Below, piece by piece: positions 1 through 49,027 of a stretch of DNA of 54,499 bases. Source of the stretch: a virus (taxonomy: Duplodnaviria; Caudoviricetes). The notes beneath the pieces are model-generated. The model made no database searches and had not been told where the DNA came from. It saw nothing but the letters and a program-made list of their open reading frames with translations. Position numbers and translations under genes: made by a program. The stretch lies in IMG/VR virus record IMGVR_UViG_3300031951_000212, positions 1-54,499 of that record; one strand, written 5' to 3'. Position 1 is the first letter of the stretch, and each line of letters begins with the position of its first letter.

Positions 1-1518
1 ATCCTTTGAGAGTAATCGCATTTTATCAAACTCCCAACCCTCCGCATTCTTTACAATGTAATACTTGGGTGCTGTTCCTGTGGCGAGGTCGAACTTCTCT
101 GATTCCCATGAAGTGCGATAGCCATATGCAGTAGTGTAGAGATTGATAATACCTTTTGGTCTTGTATTACCTTTACCACCAGATGCCTTGTTGCTGGTAA
201 TAGCAGGGAGTGTCGAAGTGGGAATGAATGCTGATGCGGGGAATCCTGCTTTGATGAGTGCAACCATTCCTGTATTGTCAACCAGATTCACCGAGATGTT
301 TGAATTGCCATGTGACTTGATGAAAGCAATCGTGCGTTTGATTGATCCCTTCTTGAGATCATCCACATACCAGAGAGCATTGCTGTCCAGAGAAGCATAT
401 TCTGATTCACTCCACTTGGCACGACCCCATACTCGTTTGCAATAGGATTTGAGATTGTTCTGGCAAAGGTTCTTGATCGACTTGCGAGGTTCGGTGATGT
501 CAATGTTTTTCCACATGACCTTGCCACTAATCAAAGTGGAATTGAGGAAAGACCATTGGTTGTTCAGAAGGTATAGTGCTTTCATTGCATCCAGAAGGTT
601 ATCAGAGTTCTTGATCTGATCCTCGACCTTGGCAACGAAATCCTTCTTGACTTGGGTGATCTTGTCGTTGAGTGCTTGGACTACCCAATCGTGATACATG
701 AGTGCTTCACGACTTGGAGTGACATCCAGTTCACCAATGGCAAACTTAATCACCAATCCTGCTTTGCGAATAATGTCGTAGTGTTCATTGGCGAGTTTGT
801 ATGTGTCGATTGGATATACGACTCCACCCATGACCGCATACGACTGATTCAAAGAAGTGTAAGACTTCCAGAACGATCCCTCGAAATCGCACTTGTCTGT
901 CCAATCCACACTACCACCAGAGATGGTTGGTTTGGTATCAAAGAATCGAAATGCCTTGAAGATTGAATGTGCAAACTCACCAATGTCCGTTTGTTTTACT
1001 GGAATCTGAATCTCGATACCATTTTCCTTGGGTGTTTTCTCCTGTGATACCATAGAAATGGTTGGCATACCTTGTGCATTGAAGTAAGCATTGTAGATGC
1101 GCTTGACTCCCAAGTGGCGGGAAGTAATCGTGAAATTGTCGGTGTAGCAGAAGGGACTTTTGCTACCGAGTCCAAGCATACCAACTTGGGTGTTGGTGTT
1201 GGTCTTGGTAGATGCAAAGTAAGTGGAATAGATTTCGTAGATATTCTCATGGGAGATACCTGTTCCGAAATCTTGGATAGTCAACCAAGGTTCCAGAGCA
1301 TTTGGAATATGAACATGGAACGGACGGGTTGGTTGTCCAGATGCGATATGGGAATCCATTGCATTGCATCCGAGTTCACGCACAATGGCGAGAGGTTTAT
1401 CAGAATACAAACTGGAAAGAATCTGGAATGCTTTCTGTGAAGTCCGCATTTTGAATTGCGCTTCATCAGTAATGTTTCCGATCTGCTCGATAGTAGTTTC
1501 TTTGTCTTGAATAATCAT
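1..1518 (-). CDS. rIIA: rIIA-like lysis-inhibition protein with N-terminal GHKL (HATPase) domain; 3'-partial, runs off window start
   Basis: Not in ORF track (no stop in window). Manual translation from ATG at 1518: MIIQDKETTIEQIGNITDEAQFKMRTSQKAFQILSSLYSDKPLAIVRELGCNAMDSH...LTIQDFGTGIS...YFASTKT...VGMLGLGSKSPFCYTDNFTITS. The LYSD..AIVREL..NA.DSH, DFGTG and GLGSKSPF.YTD.F motifs are typical of T4 rIIA. Confidence 0.88.
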   Translation of the reverse strand, partial: MIIQDKETTIEQIGNITDEAQFKMRTSQKAFQILSSLYSDKPLAIVRELGCNAMDSHIASGQPTRPFHVHIPNALEPWLTIQDFGTGISHENIYEIYSTYFASTKTNTNTQVGMLGLGSKSPFCYTDNFTITSRHLGVKRIYNAYFNAQGMPTISMVSQEKTPKENGIEIQIPVKQTDIGEFAHSIFKAFRFFDTKPTISGGSVDWTDKCDFEGSFWKSYTSLNQSYAVMGGVVYPIDTYKLANEHYDIIRKAGLVIKFAIGELDVTPSREALMYHDWVVQALNDKITQVKKDFVAKVEDQIKNSDNLLDAMKALYLLNNQWSFLNSTLISGKVMWKNIDITEPRKSIKNLCQNNLKSYCKRVWGRAKWSESEYASLDSNALWYVDDLKKGSIKRTIAFIKSHGNSNISVNLVDNTGMVALIKAGFPASAFIPTSTLPAITSNKASGGKGNTRPKGIINLYTTAYGYRTSWESEKFDLATGTAPKYYIVKNAEGWEFDKMRLLSKD

Positions 1519-1599
1519 AGTGGTTGTTTGGTTGTGGTTGGTTGTTCGTTAGAACGCAATCAATCTCTCATGGGTTCATCCAATGTGCAATAATTATTT

Positions 1600-1740
1600 T
1601 TGTAATACTTTGTCTTACATTTTATGAACCAGGAAATGTCTTACATCTTGTCAATACTTATTTTTGTCTTACATTTCACAACCAGGAAATGTCTTACAAA
1701 TTGTCAAGGAAATATATTGTAATACATTGTCTTACATTAA
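1600..1740. repeat. Cluster of five TGTCTTACA elements (1611, 1637, 1665, 1690, 1728) in a ~53-bp tandem duplication, with TTGACA hexamers on the minus strand
   Basis: tgtcttacattt..aaccaggaaatgtcttaca..ttgtcaa occurs twice in tandem upstream of rIIA. Confidence 0.9.
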
Positions 1741-1751
1741 ATCTATTACAA

Positions 1752-1785
1752 GAAAATTCCCAAGAGTTTTTAGGCTCTTGGGAAT
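1752..1785 (-). terminator. Intrinsic terminator
   Basis: Stem ttcccaagag/ctcttgggaa with 8-nt loop, followed by TTTTCTT on the minus strand, just after the stop of 1793..1969. Confidence 0.75.
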
Positions 1786-1792
1786 CTTTATT

Positions 1793-1969
1793 TCAATCTT
1801 CTTTTAGAATGATTGGGTCGAACACTGGTTCCTCGAAATCTTCTTCCTCGTCTCTGTGAATATCCCGATTATCCCATTTCGATTTAAAACAACTTCCCAT
1901 CCAATCATCAAAATCTTCATTGAAATGATTTCGTTTGAATAGGTCAGGACTGATTGAATAGGTTCTCAT
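1793..1969 (-). CDS. Small acidic hypothetical protein (58 aa)
   Basis: Below ORF-track cutoff. MRTYSISPDLFKRNHFNEDFDDW...IILKED*; ATGA overlap with the upstream stop; followed by a terminator. Confidence 0.65.
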   Translation of the reverse strand: MRTYSISPDLFKRNHFNEDFDDWMGSCFKSKWDNRDIHRDEEEDFEEPVFDPIILKED

Positions 1970-2214
1970 AGAATTGTAATTTTAATTTGTTTTGTTTGGA
2001 TTGTATTTCCTTCAATGATGCAGTCGGAGAGATCGTCTGTGAATACAGAACCATACAATCCGGCTATTACCATTTGGGGAATCTCTGGATCAATTTCTAC
2101 ATTTGGATCGAAGAAGTCCATTTCAATATCTTCTCCATCTTCCAGTGTAAGACAATGTATTTCATTTGCCTTTTGTAGTGTGTCGAGTGCTCGTCTGATT
2201 TGTTTTATTTTCAT
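1966..2214 (-). CDS. Hypothetical protein (82 aa)
   Basis: Tightly packed in the minus-strand operon; contains one TGTAAGACA copy at 2146-2154. Confidence 0.7.
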   Translation of the reverse strand: MKIKQIRRALDTLQKANEIHCLTLEDGEDIEMDFFDPNVEIDPEIPQMVIAGLYGSVFTDDLSDCIIEGNTIQTKQIKITIL

Positions 2215-2227
2215 TTTATTTTTGTTT

Positions 2228-2461
2228 TTAGTGGTTGCAGGGTGATCCTTCTACGATATGGAATACTTTGTGCCAGTTGGTTCCTTGGTTTCCATCGAAT
2301 GTGTCATACAATTTTTGTGCAACTGGAATGAAATCATTCCAATTTATTTCAGATTCTTCTTTCTTTAGAAGCTTAACAAAATCCTCTGGTGTCCATGCTT
2401 CAATATAGCAGGAAGGATATTTGTCTTGCAATGCTGCGAGGTCATCGTAGAAATCTGTCAT
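2228..2461 (-). CDS. Hypothetical protein (77 aa)
   Basis: Start revised to MTDFYDD at 2461 (ATGA overlap with the previous stop). Confidence 0.7.
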   Translation of the reverse strand: MTDFYDDLAALQDKYPSCYIEAWTPEDFVKLLKKEESEINWNDFIPVAQKLYDTFDGNQGTNWHKVFHIVEGSPCNH

Positions 2462-2934
2462 ACAAGTTCCTCCTCGTCTTCTTCCCAAGGTTCATATCCA
2501 AGAGAATCCAAAAGTTCTTCTGGTGCAGATTGAATGTCGTTGTAAAACTCATCATAGTCTCCATCTTGTCCTGCTGTATATCTTCCACAGAATCCCATAC
2601 CTTCTTCGATATATTCCAGAATGAATGTTTCTCCTGTGATTTCAGCAAGTTTCTTGATGATTGGAAGTGGAGGCGCCCATGCTGTATCAAATGAAAATAT
2701 AGTAAAATCATCTGTGAATGATCCATCATATCCATTCCATTTGGTTCCCCAATTCTTTACTCTCCAATTATACCAATCGCTTCCTGCTTCCAGAAGTTTC
2801 TCATCCATTGGAATGATTGATTGAAAGTCAATCTCGTAATCGTTGTCTCCTGCTTCGATCAAATATGGATTCAAAACATTTAGAATGTCTTTTTTACTTT
2901 CAATCATTAAGTGGTTTCTGCAATGATTTGGCAT
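2458..2934 (-). CDS. DUF1281/YubB-type ferredoxin-like domain protein
   Basis: MPNHC.N start and DWYNWRVKNWGTKWN, FDTAWAPP, Y.EEGMGFCG motifs. Confidence 0.8.
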   Translation of the reverse strand: MPNHCRNHLMIESKKDILNVLNPYLIEAGDNDYEIDFQSIIPMDEKLLEAGSDWYNWRVKNWGTKWNGYDGSFTDDFTIFSFDTAWAPPLPIIKKLAEITGETFILEYIEEGMGFCGRYTAGQDGDYDEFYNDIQSAPEELLDSLGYEPWEEDEEELV

Positions 2935-2989
2935 AATGTTTTATTCTAATTGGATTGTTTTACTGGTTTTCATGGTCGTATGTTTTATT

Positions 2990-3258
2990 CATAATGTAAG
3001 ACAATGTATTACAATGTATTGTAAAATTGCACAAGTTTTTCAACATCATCTTTTCGTAGCATGATTACTTCTGGTTCAAAACAATCTACTTGGTGAATGA
3101 TGGTGAAATCTTCTGTTTCACAACCATAGACAATAGCAAATTTTTTGAATGATTCTTGATAGTTTGCAACCTTGCAAACACTATCTTCCCATTGAATTGC
3201 TGTCAATAGTTCTTTTTCGTATTCTTTTTGCGTGTTCATAGTGTAAGACAATGTATTA
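2990..3258. repeat. 22-bp direct repeats (2990-3011 and 3237-3258) flanking gene 3009..3239
   Basis: cataatgtaagacaatgtatta versus catagtgtaagacaatgtatta (one mismatch). Confidence 0.9.
3009..3239 (-). CDS. Hypothetical protein (76 aa)
   Basis: Start revised to MNTQKEY at 3239; the longer track ORF overlaps the next gene. Confidence 0.7.
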   Translation of the reverse strand: MNTQKEYEKELLTAIQWEDSVCKVANYQESFKKFAIVYGCETEDFTIIHQVDCFEPEVIMLRKDDVEKLVQFYNTL

Positions 3259-3552
3259 GTAGTTGCCAAATTCCAATTCAGTTTGAAGTTCTTCCCAACG
3301 ATCTTCTTCATAGTCGAGTTGCTGACAATCTGCATCAACAATCTCAATGTTAAGTTCTGCTCCGATATTGGAACGAATTGCTGAAACCATTCCACCTTTG
3401 ACATAGATGGCGATCTTGGGAGTCTTGGTAATAGCTTCCAATCGTTCATCAATATGGTCTGCGATTTTTTCTTGTCCTGCACAACGAAGTGCATTGATTG
3501 CATTGAGCAATAGTATTTGTTCTGTATCTGGTAGTGGTTCTGTTATTTTCAT
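3256..3552 (-). CDS. Hypothetical protein (98 aa)
   Basis: Start revised to MKITEPL at 3552, 10 nt after the upstream stop; C-terminal IAIYVKGGMV..I...EIVDAD motif. Confidence 0.7.
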   Translation of the reverse strand: MKITEPLPDTEQILLLNAINALRCAGQEKIADHIDERLEAITKTPKIAIYVKGGMVSAIRSNIGAELNIEIVDADCQQLDYEEDRWEELQTELEFGNY

Positions 3553-3562
3553 TTGATTTATT

Positions 3563-4240
3563 TTAGTTGAGGTTAATGATTTCATCTGACAAGTCACCTT
3601 CTTCAAGAACATGACTCCAGTAGCGGGAATCTTGTTTTTCCTGCTTCCGATCCCAATAGATACACCGAGCAATATAGGGAGGCAAGTCTTTTTTCAAAGA
3701 ATTTTTCACCCAATGGGATTCCAAATCCATATACATTCTACCATGCTTGGTCTGGTTCAAATCGTATGCTTGAAACAAGTGGGTATCCAAGCACACAATC
3801 TCTGCTTCATCTGGATAAATCATCTCAATAGCAAAACTACTCTTTGCCATACCAAGTCCAGTAATCTCTTTTACAATACGATTGCGAAAAGAACTCCAAT
3901 TTTCATTGAGTCCACGATCAAAATTGGAAGGATTACTCCAGAACTTTGTGGTGAATTTTGAAATGAATTTTAATCTATTGTTGTGAAGTCCAACCCTGGA
4001 AGCAATTAGCTTTTCTTCCAAGATATTCCAACGATTCATCCAAGTCCACCAATCCTTGATGTTGTTATATCCAATGATATTTCGTTCCCAAGTGGTATGA
4101 ACGCTCATAAAAGCGAACAAGAACCTTTGGAATCGTTCAGAATCATTGATTGGTTTTAGTTTCTTCCAATAATCATACTGGAATTTGATCTCGTTATCTT
4201 CGATTGAATCGAAGAACTCATCTACTGGTTGTGTATTCAT
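3563..4240 (-). CDS. HhH DNA glycosylase/AP-lyase, Ogg2 (thermostable 8-oxoguanine glycosylase)-like
   Basis: FRNRIVKEITGLGMAKSSF helix-hairpin-helix followed by IVCLDTH (catalytic Asp region). Confidence 0.7.
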   Translation of the reverse strand: MNTQPVDEFFDSIEDNEIKFQYDYWKKLKPINDSERFQRFLFAFMSVHTTWERNIIGYNNIKDWWTWMNRWNILEEKLIASRVGLHNNRLKFISKFTTKFWSNPSNFDRGLNENWSSFRNRIVKEITGLGMAKSSFAIEMIYPDEAEIVCLDTHLFQAYDLNQTKHGRMYMDLESHWVKNSLKKDLPPYIARCIYWDRKQEKQDSRYWSHVLEEGDLSDEIINLN

Positions 4241-4264
4241 GGTTGGTTGTGGTTGGTTTTTATT

Positions 4265-4450
4265 TCAAATGTATTTTTTTACTACTAACGACTGCTTTCT
4301 TTCTCCATTATACATGAAGGTAATCAAATCCCTTCCGTATATGTCCTCTGATATATCGAGAAATTCTACATTGTCAACAGGAATTTTCTCCCCATCTACA
4401 ATAACACAAGAAATCTCTTCTGCTATCCAATTACAAATGTCTTCTTCCAT
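4265..4450 (-). CDS. Hypothetical protein (61 aa)
   Basis: First gene of the early operon; preceded by a promoter-like sequence. Confidence 0.7.
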   Translation of the reverse strand: MEEDICNWIAEEISCVIVDGEKIPVDNVEFLDISEDIYGRDLITFMYNGERKQSLVVKKYI

Positions 4451-4456
4451 GACCCA

Positions 4457-4484
4457 AAGCTATTCCAAGTATTCTAATACACAA
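4457..4484 (-). promoter_or_regulatory. Putative sigma70-type promoter of the early operon
   Basis: TTGTGT-N16-TAGCTT ending 6 nt before ATG 4450. Confidence 0.4.
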
Positions 4485-4493
4485 GAAAAATAT

Positions 4494-4915
4494 CAGTGTA
4501 AGACAAATTTTTATTGTTCCAGTGTAAGACAAAGTATTTTCAATGTAAGACAAAGTATTTCCTTGACAAAAAATATATTGACAAGGGGTATTTTCAATGC
4601 TACCTTGGAGGCATGGACAAACCATTTTGTAATAAAATCCAGTGTAAGACAGTGTCTTACAATATATTACAATGTATTACAATGTATTACAATTTTATTT
4701 GAATACATTGGAATGTAAGACAACGTCTTACAATGTATTACAATGTATTACAATGCCTTACAATGCCTTACAATGTATTACAATGTCTTACCAGCCCATT
4801 TTTTCCAATTTTTTGTAATATTCTTGTAATTTTTTTTGTAATTTTTTTTGTTTTAAATGAAGTCTAATAAATTTTAAATGTATTAAAATGTATTTAAATG
4901 TATTAAAATTGTATT
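4494..4915. repeat. TGTAAGACA iteron-like cluster, palindromes and 10-bp tandem array (CAATGTATTA variants), followed by an AT-rich tract
   Basis: TGTAAGACA at 4497, 4523, 4544, 4643, 4714; palindrome TGTAAGACA-G-TGTCTTACA at 4643-4661; caatgtatta/caatgcctta/caatgtctta x6 at 4731-4790; aaatgtatt x3 near 4876-4905. Confidence 0.92.
4578..4606 (+). promoter_or_regulatory. Sigma70-type promoter firing into the repeat array
   Basis: TTGACA-N17-TACCTT with extended -10 TG; ATG at 4613 lies 6 nt downstream. Confidence 0.6.
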
Positions 4916-5126
4916 CTAAGTCTATTTCTAATGTTTTTACAAATATATCAAAATATTCTTCATCCCTGAGTAATCTTTACAAATAAGTCAAAAAAAGTGT
5001 ATAAAAAGATACACCTATAATATAAGAAAATCCTGTATAGTGAAAATAGTTCTTATAATCTTTATTTCCTTAATAACACATGGGAATAAAAGATGGGAGA
5101 ATGTTTTTTTTTCTTCTTGTGTGTAT

Positions 5127-5172
5127 AAAGAAAAAGAGAACTCTGTGTATTGAATACAATAGAATTCTCTTT
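5127..5172 (-). terminator. Intrinsic terminator downstream of 5287..6081
   Basis: Minus strand AGAGAAUUCU...AGAGUUCUCU stem (one G-U pair) followed by UUUUCUUU. Confidence 0.65.
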
Positions 5173-5286
5173 ATTTATGTTATAAGGGGAAATTTGTTTT
5201 AATGTACTATTTGTCTTGGTATTTTTGTTGTGTTGTCAAATAGTGTGGTAATGCTACACCATGTTGTATTAAAACAGAGTGTTGTA

Positions 5287-6081
5287 TTAAATCGGTCTTT
5301 CTCCGATGATCTTTCCTTTTATTGCTTTTACAAATGCATCAATAGTTCCTCCGTTTGCATTCACTGTAGATTTAAATTCTCTCCAATTCCTATCTGCATT
5401 TATTGGATGACGCTTTGGATTTTCAAAGTTTGGACGAGAAGAGAATGGATCACCAGTAATAGTATTATCATTTACTCTTACTGTAATTTCTGTAATAGCT
5501 TTATTTCCCTCATCGTTTATATATTGAATCTTTACTTTCTTTGTTGCCCCAGTACCAAGTTTTCCTTCTTGTCTAATATCTGAATGTCTTCTATATTGAG
5601 GAAAAAGTTCATTGATCACCTTGAACCAAACGTCTCTTGTTGATGGATTCGGTTGTTTGGTTGAATTGTATTTAAAAAACATCTTGAAGAAGTTATATGC
5701 ATCATCACCTCCCAGCAATGCTGTTTTTTCTTCTCCAGTGGAACGATCTAAAACATTATCTTCCAATGGTAATATGTACTTGTTTGTCTTTGGTGGAACA
5801 GGATTTTGTTTTGTAGGAGTAAAGACTTCAAACAATTCTTTCTTTAATTCGGCCTTGAACTTTTCCCCTGCAAAAGAATTCTTTCCCATTTTAATAGGAA
5901 CATTCATTTTATCATTAGCAAAAGTAACTGCATCAAGAAGAAATTTTGGATCTTTGCTGGAAACAAAGTCTTGAATAATAGTTGCTGGGTTTATATCCTT
6001 TGACTGCTTTTCCACGTATCCTGCAATCTGACCTTTAACTTCTTCTGTGATGTAATGACGTACAAGTTTATCGAATTTCAT
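5287..6081 (-). CDS. Hypothetical late protein, candidate internal head protein
   Basis: 264 aa; TAAATA upstream; N-terminus MKFDKLVRHYITEE. Confidence 0.75.
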   Translation of the reverse strand: MKFDKLVRHYITEEVKGQIAGYVEKQSKDINPATIIQDFVSSKDPKFLLDAVTFANDKMNVPIKMGKNSFAGEKFKAELKKELFEVFTPTKQNPVPPKTNKYILPLEDNVLDRSTGEEKTALLGGDDAYNFFKMFFKYNSTKQPNPSTRDVWFKVINELFPQYRRHSDIRQEGKLGTGATKKVKIQYINDEGNKAITEITVRVNDNTITGDPFSSRPNFENPKRHPINADRNWREFKSTVNANGGTIDAFVKAIKGKIIGERPI

Positions 6082-6267
6082 ATGTTTATTATATTTACAA
6101 ACAGTAAAGTCTTTTATTGGAAAAAATTAATTTATTGAAAAATACTAAAATTATATTTAATATATTCTAATCTAAATGTTTAGATTGAAAATTGATTAAC
6201 CCCCTATTTTAACTTTTTTGTCTATTTTAATAACTTTTTTGGTATTTTTAAGTACTTTTTTATACTT

Positions 6268-6552
6268 TTATGAGTAAAAAATAGCACTTTTTGTACCATA
6301 ATAAATTCTTTTTAGTATCTCCGTGAACCTTGAAACGGGATTATCTTCCTTTCCGTTCCATGCAAAATAGAATGGTTCGTATGCCTTAATTGAAGGAATA
6401 ATAAAATACTTCCAGTTCTCTTTTAGAATCGAATACCTTCTCTTCCATTCGGGCATTGGGTAATTTGGATTTGTGATATGTTCAATCGGAGGCATGTACA
6501 TACATTCCTGCCTTTTCATTTCTCTTACATAATCGTTTGGATCAATTTTCAT
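6268..6552 (-). CDS. Hypothetical protein (94 aa)
   Basis: Last of a tightly overlapping operon spanning 6268-7879. Confidence 0.65.
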   Translation of the reverse strand: MKIDPNDYVREMKRQECMYMPPIEHITNPNYPMPEWKRRYSILKENWKYFIIPSIKAYEPFYFAWNGKEDNPVSRFTEILKRIYYGTKSAIFYS

Positions 6553-6763
6553 AGTTATACTTTGTTGCCTCCTCGTTGAATCCTTCCATTATAAGATAGT
6601 TTTTAATATATTCCAGATCTTTTTTACTGATCTTGTTTTTACAATCAACCTCGACCTTTTGTTCCTCCGGTGTCAAACTTTTGATCTTGATATTCATTTT
6701 GATCCCTCGAATCTCAATGTTTCTCAAGGTATAGATTTTTTTGGGTGCTGGATTCTTTTTCAT
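6542..6763 (-). CDS. Hypothetical protein (73 aa)
   Basis: ATGA overlap with the upstream gene. Confidence 0.7.
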   Translation of the reverse strand: MKKNPAPKKIYTLRNIEIRGIKMNIKIKSLTPEEQKVEVDCKNKISKKDLEYIKNYLIMEGFNEEATKYNYEN

Positions 6764-7335
6764 TTTCTTTTTGATTCTCCTTCAAATCTTTTTAATCGAC
6801 AGACACAATACTTGCTAATAGAGCATCTATCGCACGTTCTATCATTATTTAGATATATATCCGGTCTTAAACAAGAACTGGTATGTTTTTCACAGGCTTC
6901 TTTATTGTCTTTCAAGTAAATTGATAATCTTGGTTTATTGAAATCGATCTTGGGTGTGTTTCTTCTTATCTCTTCAATCTCTTCTTCAATTTCCCATTGC
7001 GTCTTAACCTTCTTAACAACTGGTTTCTTTTCCTTTGGTTCAATTAACAGTCTACAATCCTTACACCTTGTAGTGTTTAACATCTTTTCAATGTCTTTTC
7101 CTGCTTTTTCAAATGCATGTTTGAACCCCACGCCTTTTAACTTTGCCGTGTAACTTTTACATTCACAACAGAATATCTCATTGTATGGTAGCTTTTTATG
7201 TTCCTTGTAGTGTTCCAACCACAATGACATACCATCAAATTGGTTCTTTGGTATCTTTTTTGTTTTTTTATTCTTTAGGTTCTTATCTTCAACCTTAGAT
7301 TTGCGTGTTCCTTTTTTATTGATACTATTTCGCAT
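6760..7335 (-). CDS. Basic Cys-rich putative metal-binding protein
   Basis: CCEC...CKDC and C...CDRCSISKYCVC clusters; Lys-rich. Confidence 0.7.
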   Translation of the reverse strand: MRNSINKKGTRKSKVEDKNLKNKKTKKIPKNQFDGMSLWLEHYKEHKKLPYNEIFCCECKSYTAKLKGVGFKHAFEKAGKDIEKMLNTTRCKDCRLLIEPKEKKPVVKKVKTQWEIEEEIEEIRRNTPKIDFNKPRLSIYLKDNKEACEKHTSSCLRPDIYLNNDRTCDRCSISKYCVCRLKRFEGESKRK

Positions 7336-7478
7336 TCTTCTACAAATGTTTGTTTGTTATTAAGATTCTCAGTTAATTTGCTAATATATTTCTGTGTATG
7401 TTTCCTTTTATCTTCTTCCGATAAATCATCACTTTCGAAGTAAACTTTTAGGAAAAATCTGTCCGCTTTGTTTTTCAC
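7275..7478 (-). CDS. Hypothetical protein (67 aa)
   Basis: Fills the gap in the operon; GTG start; overlaps both neighbours. Confidence 0.5.
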   Translation of the reverse strand: MKNKADRFFLKVYFESDDLSEEDKRKHTQKYISKLTENLNNKQTFVEECEIVSIKKEHANLRLKIRT

Positions 7479-7671
7479 TAAAATACTTATTGTTTTTAAT
7501 GCGCCTTAACTTGTTCATGCAAGCTATTGATATTAACAAGATTGTAATTATAGTGGCGCCAACCCATAATGGTGCCATTACCATAATCCATGGCCAATCT
7601 ATTGCACCAAAAAGCTTTAGCAGTATAAACACTATACACAAAAATGGCGCGAAACCAAGTTTGGATGCCAT
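7429..7671 (-). CDS. Small two-TM membrane protein (phage 'Fragile-X-F transmembrane'-like)
   Basis: IVFILLKLFGAIDWPWIMVMAPLW motif and basic C-terminal tail. Confidence 0.7.
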   Translation of the reverse strand: MASKLGFAPFLCIVFILLKLFGAIDWPWIMVMAPLWVGATIITILLISIACMNKLRRIKNNKYFSEKQSGQIFPKSLLRK

Positions 7672-7675
7672 AATT

Positions 7676-7879
7676 TTATACCTTTCGCATCGGCTTCAAA
7701 ACAAATGAAACCGTGGCAAACGATTCGGTTTTGTTAAGAACGGTATGTTCAACTGTTACAAATCCCTTGGATTGAAAGTCATCAATCTTCTTTTGAATAC
7801 CAACATTGATAACCCTCTCTCTGTCTCCAAATGAAAGGTTGGGTTTGTTTATTTCTATCTTTACTGTTTCTTTTATCAT
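7676..7879 (-). CDS. Hypothetical protein (67 aa)
   Basis: Directly downstream of a consensus-like promoter. Confidence 0.7.
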   Translation of the reverse strand: MIKETVKIEINKPNLSFGDRERVINVGIQKKIDDFQSKGFVTVEHTVLNKTESFATVSFVLKPMRKV

Positions 7880-7885
7880 AGTACC

Positions 7886-7914
7886 AATATATAGACAAAG
7901 TTTCTGTTTGTCAA
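7886..7914 (-). promoter_or_regulatory. Sigma70-type early promoter (leaderless geometry)
   Basis: TTGACA-N17-TATATT, 6 nt before ATG 7879. Confidence 0.75.
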
Positions 7915-7917
7915 CTT

Positions 7918-9078
7918 TTATCTAGTTTGTGTCTGTGGCTGTGTGGTTGTGGTTGGTGCTTGTGTTTGTTGTTGGGTTGGTGCTTGAGCTTGGGGTTGTG
8001 TTTGAGTCTGTTGTTGAGGCTGTGCTGGTTGTTGTTGTTGGTCTTGTTGTTGAGGCGAAGCCTTCGCCTTCTTATTGGTTATTGGTATTGCAACCCAACT
8101 TGGAAAACTTGTACCTTGACCAACCCATGCAGTATCAGTAAACTTTCCTCTTCCATTAACAACAAGAAGTTTATCTTTTGGTTTCTTTTCACCGGTTTCG
8201 GGTTGCTCTTGTGGTTGTTCCTGTTGCTGTGGTTGTGGTTCTGGTTGTTCCTGTTGCTGTGGTTGTGGTTCTGGTTGTTGTGGTTGCTCTTGTGGTTGCG
8301 TAGCTTGATTCATCCACCTGTTATTAAGTTGTCCTGGTGCAGGATTTGGTTTTCCGTTTGGCATTATCCATTCATCAGTTTCTGCATTATAGGTGTTATC
8401 TCCAACACTTGTGCTAATAACTGTTCCATCTGGTGGTTTTGGTAATGAATCTAATTGTTGTGGAACTGCTTGCTCACTATTTGGATTACGAGGTTTTCTT
8501 GTTCTTTTACCTTTTCTTTTTTCTTCTAATATAGAATTGAAAAGAACAAAAAATTTATTAAAGTTTTCTGGTATAACTACATTTGATAATTTTCCAAGCT
8601 CTTTTGCCTTGTCTCTTGTGACCAATTGCCACTTAGTTGGATTGTTGTTTGTCAATACAAACAAAAAATCTGACTTCTTGGCAGTTTCTGACTTAGAAAA
8701 CAATTCAACTGGAACCTCTTTCTTGCTGTTTATTGCATTTTCAAGTTCTGGCGAAACGTGTATTAACTGTATTGAAAAAGACCCATCATTCTTAATATCA
8801 ATTATCTTACCAACAATATTTGAGTTTCCAAGCATGTTGATATACTGTCCTTTTTTTGGTGGGTTATCTTTACCAAGAACTAAACTCTTTGAATCTTTTT
8901 GTTTTTGTAATGCATCTATTGCAGTACCGGCTTGTTTGAATAGTTGACTTGGATCTTCAGCTGTTTTGATCGCAGTCCCTATTCCACCCGCTGTACTCGC
9001 AGCTACATTTTTTAATCCCGATAAAAAACCTCCTTGTTCATTTAAGGTTGAATCTATTAACTGGTCAAATTTCGCCAT
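7918..9078 (-). CDS. Late protein with Q/P/E-rich low-complexity C-terminal half; candidate internal head protein
   Basis: 386 aa; TAAATA 7 nt upstream; MAKFDQLIDSTLNEQ; tandem PEPQPQQQEQ repeats (30-bp DNA unit near 8213-8280). Confidence 0.8.
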   Translation of the reverse strand: MAKFDQLIDSTLNEQGGFLSGLKNVAASTAGGIGTAIKTAEDPSQLFKQAGTAIDALQKQKDSKSLVLGKDNPPKKGQYINMLGNSNIVGKIIDIKNDGSFSIQLIHVSPELENAINSKKEVPVELFSKSETAKKSDFLFVLTNNNPTKWQLVTRDKAKELGKLSNVVIPENFNKFFVLFNSILEEKRKGKRTRKPRNPNSEQAVPQQLDSLPKPPDGTVISTSVGDNTYNAETDEWIMPNGKPNPAPGQLNNRWMNQATQPQEQPQQPEPQPQQQEQPEPQPQQQEQPQEQPETGEKKPKDKLLVVNGRGKFTDTAWVGQGTSFPSWVAIPITNKKAKASPQQQDQQQQPAQPQQQTQTQPQAQAPTQQQTQAPTTTTQPQTQTR

Positions 9079-9227
9079 ATTAATATATTTAGTCCTTTGG
9101 TTTACGTAAAAAGGAAAATGTATATAACCTCAAACATTCTGGATGTTTTTGTTTTACAATAAATTTAATTTCGTTCATTTTGTTTAATTTTATTACAAAC
9201 CAACAACAAGTCAATAAATATTTTATA

Positions 9228-9482
9228 ATGGATTCATCTATAAATTTTATATATACATACTCAGCTGGAACAAAAACCATTGATGGTGTATTTCCAGTTT
9301 ATAATTTGGATGGTGCAATCGTTTGTAAAAAAACTGAATTGACCATAAATAAAAACAAAAAAAGAATCGAATTGCTTGATGAGGGAGATCCTGTTATTTT
9401 ATTAGCACAAGAAACAAATGAAGATGAAACCTTCGAATTAATAGCAACAATAAGTGGCATTGACTATAATATTTACATTTAA
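9228..9482 (+). CDS. Hypothetical protein (84 aa)
   Basis: Start revised to MDSSINF at 9228, 7 nt after TAAATA. Confidence 0.65.
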   Translation: MDSSINFIYTYSAGTKTIDGVFPVYNLDGAIVCKKTELTINKNKKRIELLDEGDPVILLAQETNEDETFELIATISGIDYNIYI

Positions 9483-9497
9483 ATGTAAATAATAGAT

Positions 9498-10322
9498 ATG
9501 GCTGGAGTAAAAATCAATAATTTAGAAGAAGCAGATGGAATTCAAGAAACTGATTCTATCATAATTGCAAGATCAAGCAACACAAATAAAATAACAGGTA
9601 AAACATTTATTCAAAATTTCTCAGGTGTAAAAAATGCCACAAATTACGGAAATGGTATTGGTGTATATAAGGGAAGTGTTACATCAACAAACGGTGCCGT
9701 TGGAACGAGTTTACAGTTTAACACGTTGAGTGGTAATAATGGAATTGATGTAAATCTTTCAGGAAGTTTAATTAATATATCTTTAAGTAATAATAGTTTA
9801 AACCTTTTAAATTCTCAAGTAACGACATCAAAAATTTCAGACGGTGCTGTTACTCCCGCAAAACAATCGGGTACTTTGTGTGCAGTTTCAACAAAAAATG
9901 GAACACAGGCAATTCCTGCTTATGCGAGAAGTGTAATAACTGGTTTATCTGCTACAGTAACACCGGTATCTATTGGAGCAAAGGTTTTATTAACTGGTTC
10001 GTTATCAATTGGAGGTATCTATGCTGGTATAATATTAAAAAGAACAATTGGTGGTGTTACAACAGATTTAGCGGTTGGTGTAGATTCTGATCAAATGTCA
10101 CAAGTTACATTTGCTGTAATTAGAAACAGTGGTGATTATAATTCACCACCAACACCAATAAATTATATCGACACTCCTAACACAACATCTCCAGTAACAT
10201 ATAGTGTTGATGTTGTATCAACATGGGGATATATTACATATGTCAACAGAGGTTACTCAGAAGGAAATGCTAGTTATTCCAGTAGGACAATTTCACAAAT
10301 AGCTGCAATAGTTTTACCATAA
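9498..10322 (+). CDS. Tail fibre-like virion protein
   Basis: VKINNL N-terminal anchor, VTTSKISDGAVTPAK repeat, C-terminal GLSATVTP...IDTPNTTSPVTY...VNR fibre-tip domain. Confidence 0.7.
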   Translation: MAGVKINNLEEADGIQETDSIIIARSSNTNKITGKTFIQNFSGVKNATNYGNGIGVYKGSVTSTNGAVGTSLQFNTLSGNNGIDVNLSGSLINISLSNNSLNLLNSQVTTSKISDGAVTPAKQSGTLCAVSTKNGTQAIPAYARSVITGLSATVTPVSIGAKVLLTGSLSIGGIYAGIILKRTIGGVTTDLAVGVDSDQMSQVTFAVIRNSGDYNSPPTPINYIDTPNTTSPVTYSVDVVSTWGYITYVNRGYSEGNASYSSRTISQIAAIVLP

Positions 10323-10351
10323 TGCATGGTACTTGATTAAGTATAGAATAT

Positions 10352-15676: not shown

Positions 15677-16132
15677 TTCCAACATAGATAATAAATAATC
15701 TGTTTTATTTAACCTTGATATAATTTCTTCTTTTGTGTTGTTAATTCCTGATTTAACTTTAGTGGTGTAATCATTAAACTCTAAAGAAGTCAATAAACAT
15801 TTAATGTTATCTGATAAATTATAATAAACATCAATCATGTTTTCGTTGTCATTGTATTGATCAATGTTTTCTAATTGATTTATTGTGATATTAAATTTTG
15901 GAAATACCACATTGCATTTTTTAGAAGTTCCTATTATTTCTTCTTGTAAAGCATCAAATAAATCATTTAAATCTGAATATAATTCACCTAATATTTCATG
16001 TGCATTATAGTCTGTAACAAACCAATGTAACATTCTAATTATGGAATTAGTTTTATTTAAAATGATTCCAAAAATTCTAACAGAATCTAAGGAAGAATCT
16101 AAATTGGATGTTTTAATTATTTCTATGTTCAT
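15668..16132 (-). CDS. Ferritin-like/Dps-like protein
   Basis: MLHWFV..YNAHEILGELY..L..LFDALQEEIIG and terminal K..YLL pattern of phage Dps-like four-helix bundles. Confidence 0.7.
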   Translation of the reverse strand: MNIEIIKTSNLDSSLDSVRIFGIILNKTNSIIRMLHWFVTDYNAHEILGELYSDLNDLFDALQEEIIGTSKKCNVVFPKFNITINQLENIDQYNDNENMIDVYYNLSDNIKCLLTSLEFNDYTTKVKSGINNTKEEIISRLNKTDYLLSMLELK

Positions 16133-16542: not shown

Positions 16543-16566
16543 TTATACTTTATTTATTAAAAAATA

Positions 16567-17733: not shown

Positions 17734-17734
17734 A

Positions 17735-19287: not shown

Positions 19288-19288
19288 T

Positions 19289-22735: not shown

Positions 22736-22754
22736 TGTTTACTATATATTTATT

Positions 22755-23450: not shown

Positions 23451-23458
23451 AAAAATAA

Positions 23459-47575: not shown

Positions 47576-49027
47576 TTAGAGGTATAAACGACCGTTGTCT
47601 TGAGCGACATTGGCAGTTCCAAGACCAGAAACGATGATAGTATGGTAGTATAAGTTAGCACCGAAGATATGATCAACAACACCGTAACGAGTCATAAGAC
47701 CTACTCTTGGCGAGAAGTCGTTAGGACCAATTGTGCGCTGGATCATAACTGGGATGTATGGGCAATATACAATACCTGTATCATAGTATTCTGTTCCTTT
47801 GTAACCTAAAAGAGCGTACTCCAAAGCTGCATTTCGCTGTCCGGCAAGATACTGAGCGTCTGTACGTGTGTCGCGGTAAACGGTGAAACGTCCACCCAAT
47901 GTACCAACTTTGGCAACGCCTGTTGGCTGGGTGTTAATGTTTCCGTTTACTGGCATCCACTGAAACTCGGGCAACATCTCAAGGATTGCGCAAACGCGAG
48001 GTGTAGCGATAATGAAATTAGCACTACCACGGCGGTTACGAATTGCGATGCGGTTAGCTTCGACAATTACCTTTGAGTAGAAGTCACGGTTTCTCTCACC
48101 CAACCAACGTGCGTCGGCTGACTGAGCGTACCAGAACGAGTATCCTGTTCCTTTACCAGCATTGAGACAGACTTGAATCATTCTGATAACCATTTCACGG
48201 TCGATTTCGGCCTGAATTTCATACGACATAGCGTTTGTTAATTCAGAGTCGATATCTAAACCATTCATGTTCTTCAAGTCTTGTTCGAGTTCAACAGACC
48301 AGCGAGCGGCGAGGCGGCGTGTACCGGCTTCGACTGCTGTCTTGCTGAATTCTACAGTAACTTGAGGAATGTTACCAGTCAACTCGAAATCTTTGAGCAT
48401 AGCAGCAACACCACGATCAGAACCAATGATTGAAAAATCATTATGGCCTGATAAGAATGTTGAGCTTGTTCCTGTGAATCGAGTATCCAAGTATTGATAG
48501 CCTAATTCGGCGTTGTCGGATTCTCTGCGGTCAAGACCGTTAGAACCAGATGTAGTGGAACCTGTGGCATAACCATCAAGTCCATTTGCACCGAGACTAT
48601 CTGCCTCATAGCGATAACGGAGAGCGAAAGCTAAACCGACTGGGCCACTCATTGGCTGTACGCCAACAATCTCATTTGTGATAAGCTCAGGGAAAGTTCT
48701 GCGAACCATTGGGATAAGAATCTTAGGTAAGCGAGAGTCTCCTGTTGCATATCTATCACCGGAAACCACATTGCCGTTGTTGCCGTAGATGTCTCCAGAT
48801 GCAGGGGATCCGAAAACCCCACCAGCACCAGCGACATTACTACCGGCTTCTTCAATACACCAGCGTTCTTGGTTTTCCATGAGGATTGCAGTAGTTAAAC
48901 GAGCATGTTCGTCTTCGATTGCAGAAACCTTATCGGAACTGTAATTGAGGACTGGTGCCCATTTTTCTACAAGCTGTTGGGCGCGTGAGCGATCAATGTA
49001 GCCTGTTGATGGATTAACTTTTCTCAT
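47576..49027 (-). CDS. gp23: Major capsid protein gp23
   Basis: LVEKWAPVL, LMENQE, GVQPMSGPVGLAFALR, SVELEQDLK, EIQAEIDRE, YCPYIP, MTRYG; AGGAG Shine-Dalgarno at 49036-49040. Confidence 0.97.
   Translation of the reverse strand: MRKVNPSTGYIDRSRAQQLVEKWAPVLNYSSDKVSAIEDEHARLTTAILMENQERWCIEEAGSNVAGAGGVFGSPASGDIYGNNGNVVSGDRYATGDSRLPKILIPMVRRTFPELITNEIVGVQPMSGPVGLAFALRYRYEADSLGANGLDGYATGSTTSGSNGLDRRESDNAELGYQYLDTRFTGTSSTFLSGHNDFSIIGSDRGVAAMLKDFELTGNIPQVTVEFSKTAVEAGTRRLAARWSVELEQDLKNMNGLDIDSELTNAMSYEIQAEIDREMVIRMIQVCLNAGKGTGYSFWYAQSADARWLGERNRDFYSKVIVEANRIAIRNRRGSANFIIATPRVCAILEMLPEFQWMPVNGNINTQPTGVAKVGTLGGRFTVYRDTRTDAQYLAGQRNAALEYALLGYKGTEYYDTGIVYCPYIPVMIQRTIGPNDFSPRVGLMTRYGVVDHIFGANLYYHTIIVSGLGTANVAQDNGRLYL

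Follow-up and report, generated by a model that had tools for sequence, protein, structure and literature searches.

The Early Region of the Window

The stretch of DNA analysed here (the window, 54,499 nucleotides) is about a quarter of the genome of an uncultured freshwater T4-like myovirus, and its gene content is T4-like: besides rIIA it has baseplate genes and a gp23-like gene for the capsid. Beside the truncated rIIA gene lies an early operon of eight small genes, taken from the open reading frame list and collinear with that of the relative L038. Upstream of the operon is an 830-bp non-coding stretch, which we call the hub. The features are listed below, where the motif is the 9-mer TGTAAGACA.

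1..1518, minus strand: 5' part of rIIA, truncated by the window end (PHROG 612, RIIA lysis inhibitor, E = 1.6e-120)
1562..1590, minus strand: candidate proximal rIIA promoter (TTGCAC, 17 nt, TGa-GAGATT), then a conserved leader
1611..1736, minus strand: five exact motif copies (1611, 1637, 1665, 1690, 1728) and a near-copy at 1718-1726, from motif scans
1756..1785, no strand: hairpin terminator at the early operon end, 13 pairs, then a T-rich tail
1793..4450, minus strand: early operon, with genes 1-4 at 1793..1969, 1966..2214, 2228..2461 and 2458..2934, and genes 5-8 at 3009..3239, 3256..3552, 3563..4240 and 4265..4450
2146..2154, plus strand: motif copy inside CDS 1966..2214(-), codons Cys-Leu-Thr
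2995..3013, plus strand: motif copy, then near-copy TGTATTACA; right-hand border of the cassette of gene 3009..3239
3242..3250, plus strand: motif copy; left-hand border of the same cassette
4455..4484, minus strand: candidate early-operon promoter (TTG, 19 nt, TAGCTTTG, 4 nt, ATG at 4450)
4497..4583, plus strand: three motif copies (4497, 4523, 4544), then TTGACA boxes at 4563-4568 and 4578-4583
4643..4791, no strand: head-to-head motif pairs (4643-4661, 4714-4732) and a 10-bp-phased TGT-N3-ACA array
4800..4915, no strand: A+T-rich trough, GC 12% over 4800-4899
5226..5292, plus strand: second conserved non-coding element at the far hub edge, with the invariant 10-nt core ACACCATGTT

The predicted isoelectric point is 4.1-4.5 for seven of the eight operon products and 6.1 for that of 3563..4240; the product of 2458..2934 has a DUF1281_C match. 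The putative rIIA promoter, proposed from its sequence, is conserved and in register in the window, L038, L039, L042 and L040, and in the first four of these a motif copy lies 20-23 nt upstream of it. The cluster at 1611..1736 is a 53-bp tandem unit (period 53, 1.9 copies) with two minus-strand TTGACA boxes (1649-1654 and 1702-1707); on its plus strand a promoter scan finds TTGTCA-16-TACATT twice. The exact pattern of the operon promoter candidate is not enriched in the window (6 occurrences, 1-7 in shuffles); we take it to resemble a -33/-7 consensus. The distance from motif to promoter differs among close relatives, being 12 nt (reverse orientation) in the window and 20 nt in L038. The copy at 3242 precedes the ATG of gene 3009..3239(-) by 2 nt, and contigs of the only RNA run, available in that form, read straight through this copy and the one at 2995.

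The Motif Is Enriched and Confined to the Early Block

The core of the motif is a TGT/ACA inverted repeat with a 3-bp centre. It occurs 14 times exactly on the two strands of the window, always inside 1611-4722 and never in the other ~51 kb, compared with a mean of 0.81 and a maximum of 2 in 100 dinucleotide-preserving shuffles. Besides the five minus-strand copies of the rIIA-side cluster, there are eight on the plus strand (2146, 2995, 3242, 4497, 4523, 4544, 4643, 4714) and one more on the minus strand, at 4653. The count, the restriction to the early region, the switch of strand and the copy inside a CDS all agree with the earlier note. Allowing up to one mismatch raises the count to 40 (shuffles: mean 20.3, largest 32), of which 28 fall in 1611-4792; the looser TGT-N3-ACA occurs 39 times, 24 of them between 1500 and 5000. 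Among the 25 commonest 9-mers of the window, all but the motif are almost wholly A+T. The motif is clustered, not spread evenly, and its copies occupy discrete intergenic regulatory clusters in front of rIIA, along cassette borders and within the hub, a placement which does not fit the proposal that a protein coats the whole 3-kb block. An extended consensus, TGTAAGACAAWGTATT, had also been proposed; seven of the 14 copies follow it and the other seven deviate.

In the hub, the claimed 10-bp phasing was recovered by Tandem Repeats Finder (4649-4791, period 10, 14.2 copies). Both claimed palindromes are real, the one at 4643-4661 being exact and the one at 4714-4732 carrying a single mismatch in its second arm. 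The trough has arrays of its own, a 12-bp one at 4809-4851 and a 10-bp one at 4876-4915 whose units are TGTATT half-units, and the TTGACA boxes at 4563 and 4578, together with a TTGACA-17-TACCTT, face it. Phased arrays and GC troughs of 0.12-0.17 are also present in the hubs of L038, L040 and L041. L056 has a hub at the same place with phased repeats of a 10-mer other than its own motif, and in L039 the hub array is weak despite 39 motif copies. The ACACCATGTT core is found 20 times in one orientation relative to rIIA in the window and eight relatives, with three more matches in the opposite orientation in G001 and L056; no consensus RNA fold was found for this element.

Lineage-Specific Variants of the Motif in Relatives

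In the 210.6-kb genome G001 (99% complete), all 21 TGTAAGACA copies lie in 17.1-33.7 kb (16.6 kb); Markov-1 simulations gave a mean of 2.6 copies and at most 7. The variant TGTATGACA is similarly confined in G002 (39 of 40 copies in 20.4-36.5 kb, about 16 kb, of 96 kb), as are all 31 motif copies of G003 (16.4-34.8 kb of 87 kb); in these two the control, the reversed pattern, occurred 0-1 times. We compared 14 rIIA loci, those of 13 relatives and the window. At nine of them a single (T/C)GTA-N2-AC(A/G) 9-mer is over-represented (L056 and L061 have identical counts and may be one phage). The variants are distributed as follows.

AAG centre: window, L041, L057
ATG centre: L039, L042
AAC/AAT centre: L038, L040
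CGTAAGACG: L056, L061

The closest relatives carry TGTAACACA and TGTAATACA. Repeated motifs of other kinds occur in L059 and L060, and no over-represented motif was found at the rIIA loci of L043, L055 and L058. By sequence comparison, the same kind of motif is present at syntenic places in the homologous region of relatives, with letters specific to the lineage. In CGTAAGACG both half-sites are changed symmetrically, from TGT/ACA to CGT/ACG, and in G001 the palindrome is longer (6+6 bp). At the codons homologous to the copy at 2146, L038 has TGTATCACA and L040 has TGTGTCACA; both differ by one mismatch from the motif variant of the respective phage. The in-CDS copy tracks the variant of its phage. 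The centre letter of the window differs from that of its closest relative L038 (rIIA 92% identical) and is the same as in the distant G001, and more than one centre variant can coexist in a single genome, so the centre may drift by gene conversion and not co-evolve with a protein.

The motif is used in both orientations: L039 has 18 copies on the plus and 21 on the minus strand, and its genes are nearly all on the plus strand. The gap from motif to TTGAC is 10 nt for two of the 14 window copies (the one at 4544 among them), 12 nt for 6/21 copies in G001, and 13 nt for 11/39 in L039 and 7/28 in L042, a distance fixed within a genome and specific to the lineage. A recognisable -10 is mostly missing from the TTGACA boxes adjoining the motif, so their promoter status is only putative. 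Head-to-head pairs occur in eight of the nine motif-bearing phages examined, the window included; T runs do not follow them, and they are therefore not terminator-like.

Motif copies also mark the borders of rearrangements. Relative to L038, the window loses homology at 2967 and 3256, beside motif copies. Joints in the population are 1738->4490, 2967->3242, 1623->1682 and 4468->5247, the first a natural variant in which the whole operon between two inverted copies is removed, and contigs end loosely at 1620, 1682, 1701, 1720, 1736, 1742, 2995 and 4568. In L039, gene groups at 10001-13715, 16204-17289, 18228-18873 and 19740-20384 are bracketed by inverted copies.

Search for a Binding Protein

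Pfam and PHROGs searches named no DNA-binding domain among the early genes of the window or G001, no recombinase or transposase in their early blocks, and no initiator-like gene beside the hub. Structures were predicted for two basic neighbour proteins, and Foldseek found no match in the PDB for either. The Cys-rich basic family of 6760..7335 is present regardless of motif variant, and G001 has its C-terminal module alone. The dimeric or oligomerising protein proposed in the earlier note is consistent with the symmetry, the two orientations, the pairs and the phased arrays, all of them indirect, and the binder itself was not found. Nothing pointed to an ejection or anchoring signal or to a decoy.

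Comparison with Known Systems

The suggestion of an undescribed system was an overstatement, given what is published on promoter-early stem-loop (PeSL) cassettes (PMC2839356, PMC4122927) and on iterons at T4 oriE (PMC3016281). PeSLs combine promoters and terminators in cassettes that recur through the hyperplastic early regions of T4-type phages such as RB49/phi1, PST/T4 and nt-1/KVP40 (PMC2839356, PMC4122927). As far as the excerpts of these papers go, the shared features are many conserved copies restricted to hyperplastic early regions of a T4-like genome, located between small genes of unknown function, combining promoter-like boxes, an A+T-rich upstream stretch and stem-loops, and placed at the insertion, deletion or replacement borders of close relatives. 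Unlike the PeSLs described there, what is conserved here is a quasi-palindrome of 9-13 bp that can be separated from the -35 and -10 boxes; it occurs in both orientations, at several distances, in head-to-head pairs that lack T runs and in a 10-bp-phased array, it changes letters by lineage (once symmetrically), and a Shine-Dalgarno part is missing.

T4 middle-mode promoters, with their MotA box and MotA/AsiA (PMC2988021, PMC3016281), are similar, in the sections of those papers at hand, in placing a phage-specific 9-bp box on host-polymerase promoters of pre-replicative genes, rIIA/rIIB too, and such a box could in principle define a co-regulated class. However, the motif does not replace the -35 element as a box centred at -30; its positions are variable or upstream of -35-like boxes. 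No match to the MotA C-terminal domain or the AsiA family was found in G001 (99% complete), G009 (92%), G002 or the window, in a search run with no positive control.

Cooperative repressor and centromere-binding operator arrays (ParR/parC; omega of pSM19035) consist of short units at the helical period, direct and inverted, upstream of an operon. Here, however, neither a partition ATPase nor a recognisable ribbon-helix-helix gene was found beside the array, and the carrier is a lytic-type T4-like phage, not a plasmid.

Interpretation

T4 oriE has evenly spaced 12-nt repeats whose role is unknown, and oriF and oriG consist of a promoter and an A+T-rich unwinding element (PMC3016281). The part of that review used here makes the hub look similar, with short direct repeats in even spacing in non-coding DNA, an adjoining A+T-rich trough and promoter-like boxes facing it. 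The hub (4497-4915) could then be a replication origin and the motif an initiator-bound iteron, the scattered copies being secondary or autoregulatory, or else it could be an R-loop origin like oriF/oriG, with motif-linked promoters directing transcription into the unwinding stretch. We regard this as rather improbable. The 14.2 units followed by 12-bp and 10-bp arrays, the fall of GC to 12%, the boxes aimed at the trough and the same-place hubs of L038, L040, L041 (GC minima 0.12-0.17 in these three) and L056 argue for it. However, the period is 10 bp and not 12, the hub holds only a minority of the copies, the rest being at promoters and cassette borders across 3-17 kb, L039 combines its many copies with a weak array, the L056 10-mer is not the L056 motif, and an initiator was not recognised. 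It seems very unlikely that the motif is a selfish or recombinational repeat without a regulatory function itself, such as a terminal inverted repeat flanking small mobile cassettes or a site recognised by a site-specific recombinase or nuclease, its copies being spread and homogenised by gene conversion. Such a repeat would fit the bracketed L039 cassettes, the 1738->4490 deletion and the other joints and loose ends, as well as the unlike centre letters of very close relatives, as expected of concerted evolution. Yet the breakpoints need no more than ordinary homologous recombination at repeats, the mechanism proposed for PeSLs, the 10-bp arrays are left unexplained, the early block yielded no recognisable recombinase or transposase, and the fixed TTGACA distance and the conserved place upstream of the rIIA promoter point to transcription.

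The motif might also be part of a core early promoter, read directly by the host RNA polymerase holoenzyme with no dedicated factor; the repeats would then be plain PeSL-type early promoters of the phage. The complementary strand would supply a -35-like TTGTCA, 16-18 nt, and a -10-like TACAYT inside TGTCT-TACA. The scan gives TTGTCA-16-TACATT at 1648-1675, 1701-1728 and 4569-4542 and TTGGCA-18-TACACT at 3269-3240, among 30 promoter-like sites in the window against 17.5 +/- 4.0 in shuffles. T is at the sixth hexamer place in 12 of the 14 copies, the G001 hexamer is TACAAT, and the complementary strand carries the genes in the early operon and through most of G001; the L039 unit directly follows terminator hairpins, like the promoter in PeSLs as excerpted from PMC2839356. 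We nevertheless consider this reading unlikely. A suitably spaced -35-like hexamer accompanies only three of the 14 exact copies, plus one near-copy. In L039 and L042 the -10-like hexamer, TACAAA or CATACA, lacks the final T, and a fixed sigma factor should not tolerate a gap to the -35-like box of 10, 12 or 13 nt by lineage. The five copies upstream of rIIA, and the L039/L042 tandem units there, would fire away from the gene, and copies 2-5 nt from start codons are too near for a -10 element. Selection appears to act on the other-strand TTGACA, because most L039 units have C at the position needed to complete TTGTCA.

We prefer, tentatively and at a probability of roughly 0.45, to regard the TGTAAGACA-type sites as operators of a dimeric, cooperative DNA-binding regulator within PeSL-like early promoter/terminator cassettes. 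The motif would be a quasi-palindromic cis-regulatory site of the pre-replicative (early) gene block, with TGTAAGACA as its core, and one sequence-specific protein, probably phage-encoded, would bind it as a dimer and oligomerise along phased sites. The enrichment, the restriction to the early block, the conservation with lineage-specific letters, the geometry and the breakpoints are observed, whereas we infer both this binding and the direction of regulation. Counting against this reading are the failure to find a binder, the acidity of seven operon products, the centre letter shared with G001 and not with L038, the mostly missing -10 elements and the unequal motif-to-promoter distances of close relatives. 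The sites would be built into the repeated cassettes, single ones ~10-36 bp upstream of -35-like TTGACA/TTG boxes of presumed host-polymerase promoters and head-to-head pairs between cassettes, and the 14-unit 10-bp-phased array with its A+T-rich trough forms a hub upstream of the early operon. Binding may switch the whole promoter block together, by activation or, slightly likelier, by shut-off after the early phase, and might also organise a nucleoprotein complex like that of an origin at the hub. The comparison with PeSLs suggests that the motif sites sit in shuffling early promoter cassettes, a type described before in relatives of T4. Because they are repeated, the cassettes may also be crossover points for gene gain and loss, as PeSLs are in T4-type phages.

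The Motif Is Concentrated in One Block

The repeated element is a nine-base quasi-palindrome, TGTAAGACA in the window, with TGT and ACA half-sites around a 3-bp centre. The earlier note had counted 14 exact copies and seen none elsewhere. All 14 were recovered, confined to 1611-4722 and thus to 3.1 kb of the window; 100 shuffles gave a mean of 0.81 copies and a maximum of 2. When one mismatch was allowed, 28 of the 40 matches in the window lay in 1611-4792, and 24 of its 39 TGT-N3-ACA words fell between 1500 and 5000. The switch of strand along the block, the two palindromes and the presence of one copy inside a CDS were as that note described, and the 10-bp phasing that it reported corresponds to an array of period 10 with 14.2 copies at 4649-4791. 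Its extended consensus, on the other hand, held for 7 of the 14 copies and failed for the others. A scan of IMG/VR with the 16-mer TGTAAGACAATGTATT gave 29 single matches in unrelated contigs, which were taken as chance, and a full-text literature query for the 9-mer returned, among the matches listed, only unrelated primer or site strings.

The Phage and Its Possible Host

The window record is 26% complete as estimated by CheckV. It encodes rIIA at 1..1518 (-) (PHROG 612, E 1.6e-120) and other T4-like products, including a gp23-type major head protein, a prohead protease and head-completion proteins, as well as baseplate wedge proteins, a clamp loader and very large tail-fibre-like proteins. 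The capsid protein is at best 34-36% identical to those of cultured phages, the nearest being T4-like cyanophages, and blastn of window 1-6000 against 50,697 phage records found only short rIIA pieces. At least half of the sampled words of the window are present in 19 DNA runs, which belong to 12 studies and bear the labels lake water, freshwater or 'fungus metagenome'. Taken together, the T4-like genes, the distance of the capsid protein and the freshwater runs indicate that the window comes from the genome, roughly 200 kb long, of an uncultured T4-like myovirus of fresh water. The lineage is deep-branching among T4-like phages. No tRNA genes were found in the window, and Rfam over 1-10000 gave no credible match (three matches with E 0.15-0.78, all to eukaryotic families). 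The GC content steps from 37-41% in rIIA and the acidic early operon (1-4000) to 25-34% in the next 20 kb (4000-24000).

By eye, a GGAG-like stretch lies upstream of about 3 of the 41 listed gene starts (2228..2461, 6268..6552 and 47576..49027); in the early operon none is placed as a Shine-Dalgarno box, and the leaders are A/T-rich or CA-rich. The near-complete relative G001 (99% complete, 210.6 kb) encodes a ribosomal protein S21 homologue at 9597-9809 (-) (Pfam E 1.4e-6). It also has a tRNA-like sequence, recognized by eye, at about 23040-23110 (-), just downstream of a motif-bearing promoter region. In the available part of a study of freshwater S21-encoding myoviruses, the hosts assigned to these phages are Bacteroidetes, and neither a promoter nor the motif is mentioned (PMC9723584). 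The near-absence of Shine-Dalgarno sequences, the S21 gene of the relative and these host assignments lead us to propose, tentatively, a host among the Bacteroidota. The Bacteroidetes-type promoter pattern, TTG-N18-20-TAnnTTTG, is not enriched, since the window has 6 exact matches and 10 shuffles gave 1-7; one match lies directly before the first early gene.

Anatomy of the Early Region

Every gene in 1-9078 is on the - strand. The features that matter here are listed below, the hub being the non-coding stretch upstream of the early operon.

Features of the early region
Upstream of rIIA, in its own orientation: five motif copies, 53-bp tandem unit with two TTGACA boxes
Between the five copies and rIIA (-): rIIA promoter-like stretch, TTGCAC, 17 nt, TGa-GAGATT, then the leader
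1756-1785: hairpin terminator that ends the early operon
1793-4450 (-): early operon of eight small genes, seven with acidic products (pI 4.1-4.5), that of 3563..4240 having pI 6.1
4451-5286 (830 bp): hub, non-coding, with three motif copies, two TTGACA boxes and two head-to-head pairs
Within 4451-5286: hub arrays, namely a 10-bp array, a 12-bp array and a 10-bp half-unit array, and a 12%-GC trough

The rIIA promoter-like stretch and leader show in-register conservation across five phages, and in each of these a copy of the motif, exact or near, lies 20-23 nt upstream. The leader itself (window 1519-1575, -) is nearly letter-for-letter the same in the window and in four related rIIA loci from IMG/VR (L038, L039, L042 and L040), whereas identity between the proteins is only 63-92%. 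Between the leader and the ATG stands a CA-rich run (ACCAACCACAACC-like), and similar runs precede other early genes, for example at 4241-4262. Within the early operon, gene 3009..3239 stands between two directly repeated copies, at 2995 and 3242, the latter 2 nt from the ATG of that gene. The GC minimum of the hub, 12%, is at 4800-4899. Its two TTGACA boxes are perfect and lie at 4563-4583 (+), with starts 15 bp apart; a spacer of 17 nt separates the second, which is directed towards the repeat array, from a TACCTT.

The genes beyond the hub encode basic proteins (pI 9-10). At most about 12 nt before their starts, and likewise before structural genes, stands TAAATATA, which we take to be similar to the T4 late-promoter octamer; the motif block therefore ends where late-type genes begin. 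Two genes preceded by TAAATATA in the manner of structural genes, 5287-6081 (-) and 7918-9078 (-), encode basic proteins that have in common a short N-terminal signature, M-K-F-D-K/Q-L ... E. This signature is invariant among homologues that are otherwise 27% identical, and it is presumably similar to the capsid-targeting leader of T4 internal head proteins. The product of 5287..6081 shares only 28% identity with its counterpart in L038, against 92% for rIIA.

A second conserved non-coding element was found at window 5226-5292 (+), in L038 (5606-5685), in L039 (4 copies) and in L040, L042, L043, L056, L057 and L059. It has an invariant 10-nt core, ACACCATGTT, with two TGTT-N-TATTAAA repeats after it, and is often within a few tens of bases of motif copies. 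Of 23 matches to the core, 20 share one orientation with respect to rIIA and stand on the strand that does not encode the early genes, and the three reversed ones are in G001 and L056. RNAalifold on 15 copies of the element gave no consensus structure, so that it looks like a DNA-level signal.

The RNA run X20 consists only of contigs (depth 2-4) that extend over 2982-3364, some of rIIA and a small number of other pieces, with the hub uncovered. They reveal no transcript starts and no strand, and may derive from DNA carry-over. A table of motif-to-gene distances from a crude ORF caller was too noisy for use.

Related Phages Carry Lineage-Specific Forms of the Motif

A search of IMG/VR with rIIA gave 13 related loci at 45-92% identity, or 14 loci with the window. 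In nine of the 14, a single 9-mer of the form (T/C)GTA-N2-AC(A/G) is strongly over-represented, L056 and L061 showing identical counts that may come from one phage. The loci tested had means of 0-0.4 in Markov-1 simulations, and G001 had one of 2.6. Other repeated motifs occupy the same regions of L059 and L060, and no repeated motif of the kind was found in L043, L055 or L058.

Motif forms at the rIIA loci
TGTAAGACA: window; L041, 19 copies; L057, 8 copies
TGTATGACA: L039, 39 copies; L042, 28 copies
TGTAACACA together with TGTAATACA: L038 and L040
CGTAAGACG: L056 and L061, 19 exact copies

In whole records of relatives, all 21 copies of G001 lie in 17.1-33.7 kb, a span of 16.6 kb, 39 of the 40 copies of G002 (96 kb) inside 20.4-36.5 kb, and all 31 copies of G003 (87 kb) inside 16.4-34.8 kb. 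The copies are thus not evenly spread but gathered in one block, in the window as in these relatives, and motifs of the same kind, with lineage-specific letters, occupy the homologous region of related phages. An even spread and absence from the homologous region of relatives are two outcomes that would, according to the earlier note, refute its proposal; both results speak for the finding. The motif is a genuine feature, conserved and far from random. The hubs of L038, L040 and L041 have phased repeats and GC minima of 0.12-0.17. L056 has at 8048-8129 a 10-bp array that is close to perfect (8.2 copies, 97% match); its 10-mer differs from the dispersed motif CGTAAGACG and is similar to part of the conserved rIIA leader.

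Motif Copies Adjoin Breakpoints

The window and L038, its closest relative, are collinear, with genes 76-92% identical in DNA and motif-bearing intergenic stretches that do not align. Homology breaks at 2967/3256, 1621/1868 and 4466/4630, adjoining copies, and L038 lacks gene 3009..3239 together with the copy on either side; some L038 indels have no motif at their border. Contigs of three lake metagenomes show alternative forms with joints at copies.

Joints and loose ends in natural populations (window coordinates)
1738->4490, with 19 other letters between: loss of the whole 2.75-kb early operon, between two inverted copies
2967->3242; 1623->1682; 4468->5247: further joints
1620, 1682, 1701, 1720, 1736, 1742, 2995, 4568: loose ends of contigs

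The form lacking the operon reaches a depth of 58 in sequencing run X6, similar to that of the full form there, and 13.6 in run X11.

PeSLs, the promoter-early stem-loop cassettes of T4-type phages, are portrayed in the available parts of two papers as repeated promoter-plus-stem-loop units that lie in hyperplastic regions and mediate modular shuffling (PMC2839356, PMC4122927). The cassette behaviour observed here is that described for PeSLs. As with PeSLs, many conserved copies are confined to the early region of a T4-like genome (window, G001, G002 and G003 alike), and copies stand at the borders of indels or replacements between close relatives, both between the window and L038 and at the population joints. 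A PeSL cassette combines a sigma-70-like promoter (-35, ~17 nt, -10) with a terminating stem-loop. TTGACA boxes and terminator hairpins adjoin the motif, most of the boxes being without a convincing -10. PeSLs are further characterised by mini-circles that recombination between adjacent cassettes excises; the contig joints here, which are blind to circles, show deletion forms. In L039, inward-facing motif-TTGACA units bracket each early gene or gene pair, and the terminator hairpins directly adjoin the downstream unit. However, the 3' end of a PeSL carries a Shine-Dalgarno sequence and a start codon, whereas the motif cassettes have no Shine-Dalgarno part. They differ further in that the motif is a separable palindromic module, that motif pairs lack T runs and that the hub holds a phased array.

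Geometry of the Motif Resembles That of an Operator

The half-sites vary together, being TGT/ACA in seven phages and CGT/ACG in L056 and L061 with the AAG centre unchanged, and in G001 the palindrome is extended to 6+6 bp. An RNA hairpin was dropped as an explanation because the extended pairing, 6 bp in G001, is only 3 bp in the window. In L039, 18 copies are on the + strand and 21 on the - strand, with nearly all genes on +; use in both orientations relative to genes favours recognition on double-stranded DNA over RNA. The gap between motif and TTGAC box is constant inside a genome and different between lineages, namely 10 nt in 2 of 14 copies in the window, 12 nt in 6 of 21 in G001, and 13 nt in 11 of 39 in L039 and 7 of 28 in L042; no fixed gap was found in L038, L040, L056 or L057. 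Copies in G001 also lie ~34-36 nt upstream of a conserved sense promoter family. Of the 9 motif-bearing phages examined, 8 (the window among them) have head-to-head pairs, whose gaps range from 1 to 29 nt and are specific to the lineage. Such a separable, symmetric and orientation-tolerant module resembles the operator of a dimeric, cooperatively binding protein, which indirectly supports the core of the earlier proposal that the copies are sites for a dimeric protein.

We favour, with a probability of roughly 45%, the reading that the motif would be an operator-like module inside PeSL-like early promoter/terminator cassettes, with a hub that is possibly origin-like. Read on the other strand, the motif unit might instead be a core promoter with its -10 inside the motif. 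TTGTCA-16-TACATT does accompany three exact copies and one near-copy, the critical final T is present in 12 of the 14 copies, and G001 reads TACAAT. We nevertheless consider a core promoter unlikely, as the final T is missing in L039 and L042, the gap to the -35-like box is not the same in all lineages, firing from many copies would be directed away from genes, and some copies are only 2-5 nt from start codons. Somewhat less likely again is that the hub is a replication origin of the iteron or promoter-plus-unwinding-element type, to which it bears a likeness as far as such origins are treated in the available part of PMC3016281. Evenly spaced direct repeats (the 14.2 copies of period 10, then 12-bp and 10-bp arrays) stand beside an A+T-rich stretch, and similar hubs exist in relatives, but most copies are outside the hub, and Pfam and PHROGs searches of the window genes recognized no initiator-like family beside it. 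That the motif is purely a selfish or recombinational repeat strikes us as highly improbable.

Two known systems were also compared with the motif. The box of T4 middle-mode (MotA-dependent) promoters lies near -30, replacing the -35, 11-13 bp upstream of a TAnnnT -10. Unlike that box, the motif is not at -30; it precedes -35-like boxes by 10-13 nt or 20-36 nt and does so in either orientation, and a search run without a positive control found no match to the MotA/AsiA families (PF09158, PF09010) in G001 (99% complete), G009 (92%), G002 or the window; the middle-promoter system does not fit the motif. A plasmid-type centromere (parC/ParR-like) has a partition NTPase and an adaptor gene next to the array. 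No ParA, ParM or TubZ-like family was found among the window genes near the motif array or among 150 small ORFs scanned of the 274 called in G001.

An operator-like module within cassettes could be taken further, to the operator of a novel phage regulator that has both a class of pre-replicative promoters and an iteron-type origin under its control, a proposal to which we give little credence. The operators of this candidate regulator would set a temporal class of pre-replicative promoters in a lineage with no detected MotA/AsiA. Its DNA specificity would have co-evolved with the sites, from TGT/ACA to CGT/ACG and with a centre of AAG, ATG or AAC. By polymerising on the 10-bp array, this protein would also fire or silence the origin, so that initiation of replication would be linked to the early-gene switch through one protein. 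The centre letter, however, is not the same in L038 and the window, while the distant G001 has the window's centre, and two centre variants can occur together in one genome; the centre may therefore drift by gene conversion and not track protein specificity. This weakens the case for co-evolution but leaves the symmetric change of half-sites standing.

Search for a Binding Protein

Pfam and PHROGs named no DNA-binding domain among the early genes of the window record, itself incomplete, and of G001. One candidate, 5287..6081, encodes 264 aa (pI 9.5, 8 homologues; AF2 model with pLDDT 80.5), for which Foldseek against the PDB gave nothing at E <= 0.001 and the Atlas no usable match. The other, 6760..7335 (-), encodes a Cys-rich protein of 191 aa (pI 9.6, 18 homologues; AF2 model with pLDDT 65.8) whose family has a conserved C-terminal six-cysteine module; no known family or fold matched it. 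In a presence/absence screen of ORF clusters, this family was present in 6 of 8 motif-bearing loci and in 0 of 5 without the motif. Searches of whole records, however, found it in G002, G003, G009, G010, G011 and G012 whatever the motif, and G001 holds only the C-terminal module. It is for these reasons not discriminating, and 6760..7335 was set aside as the motif binder, being at best a weak candidate.

Implications for Early Regulation in T4-Like Phages

To our knowledge, early-gene timing in T4-like phages outside the enterobacterial group is largely unknown, and the lineage described here, without detectable MotA/AsiA, is widespread in lakes. Should the motif be only a local version of PeSL promoters, it would be a tidy but ordinary example; should the hub be an origin, it would be relevant to the iterons of T4 oriE, which lack an explanation. 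The motif is compact and searchable, and it marks one putatively co-regulated block with 14-40 sites per genome. It thereby provides a handle for the search for a regulator and for the early regulon of uncultured phages from sequence alone, and it also serves to trace the regulatory cassettes that drive gene shuffling in natural populations.
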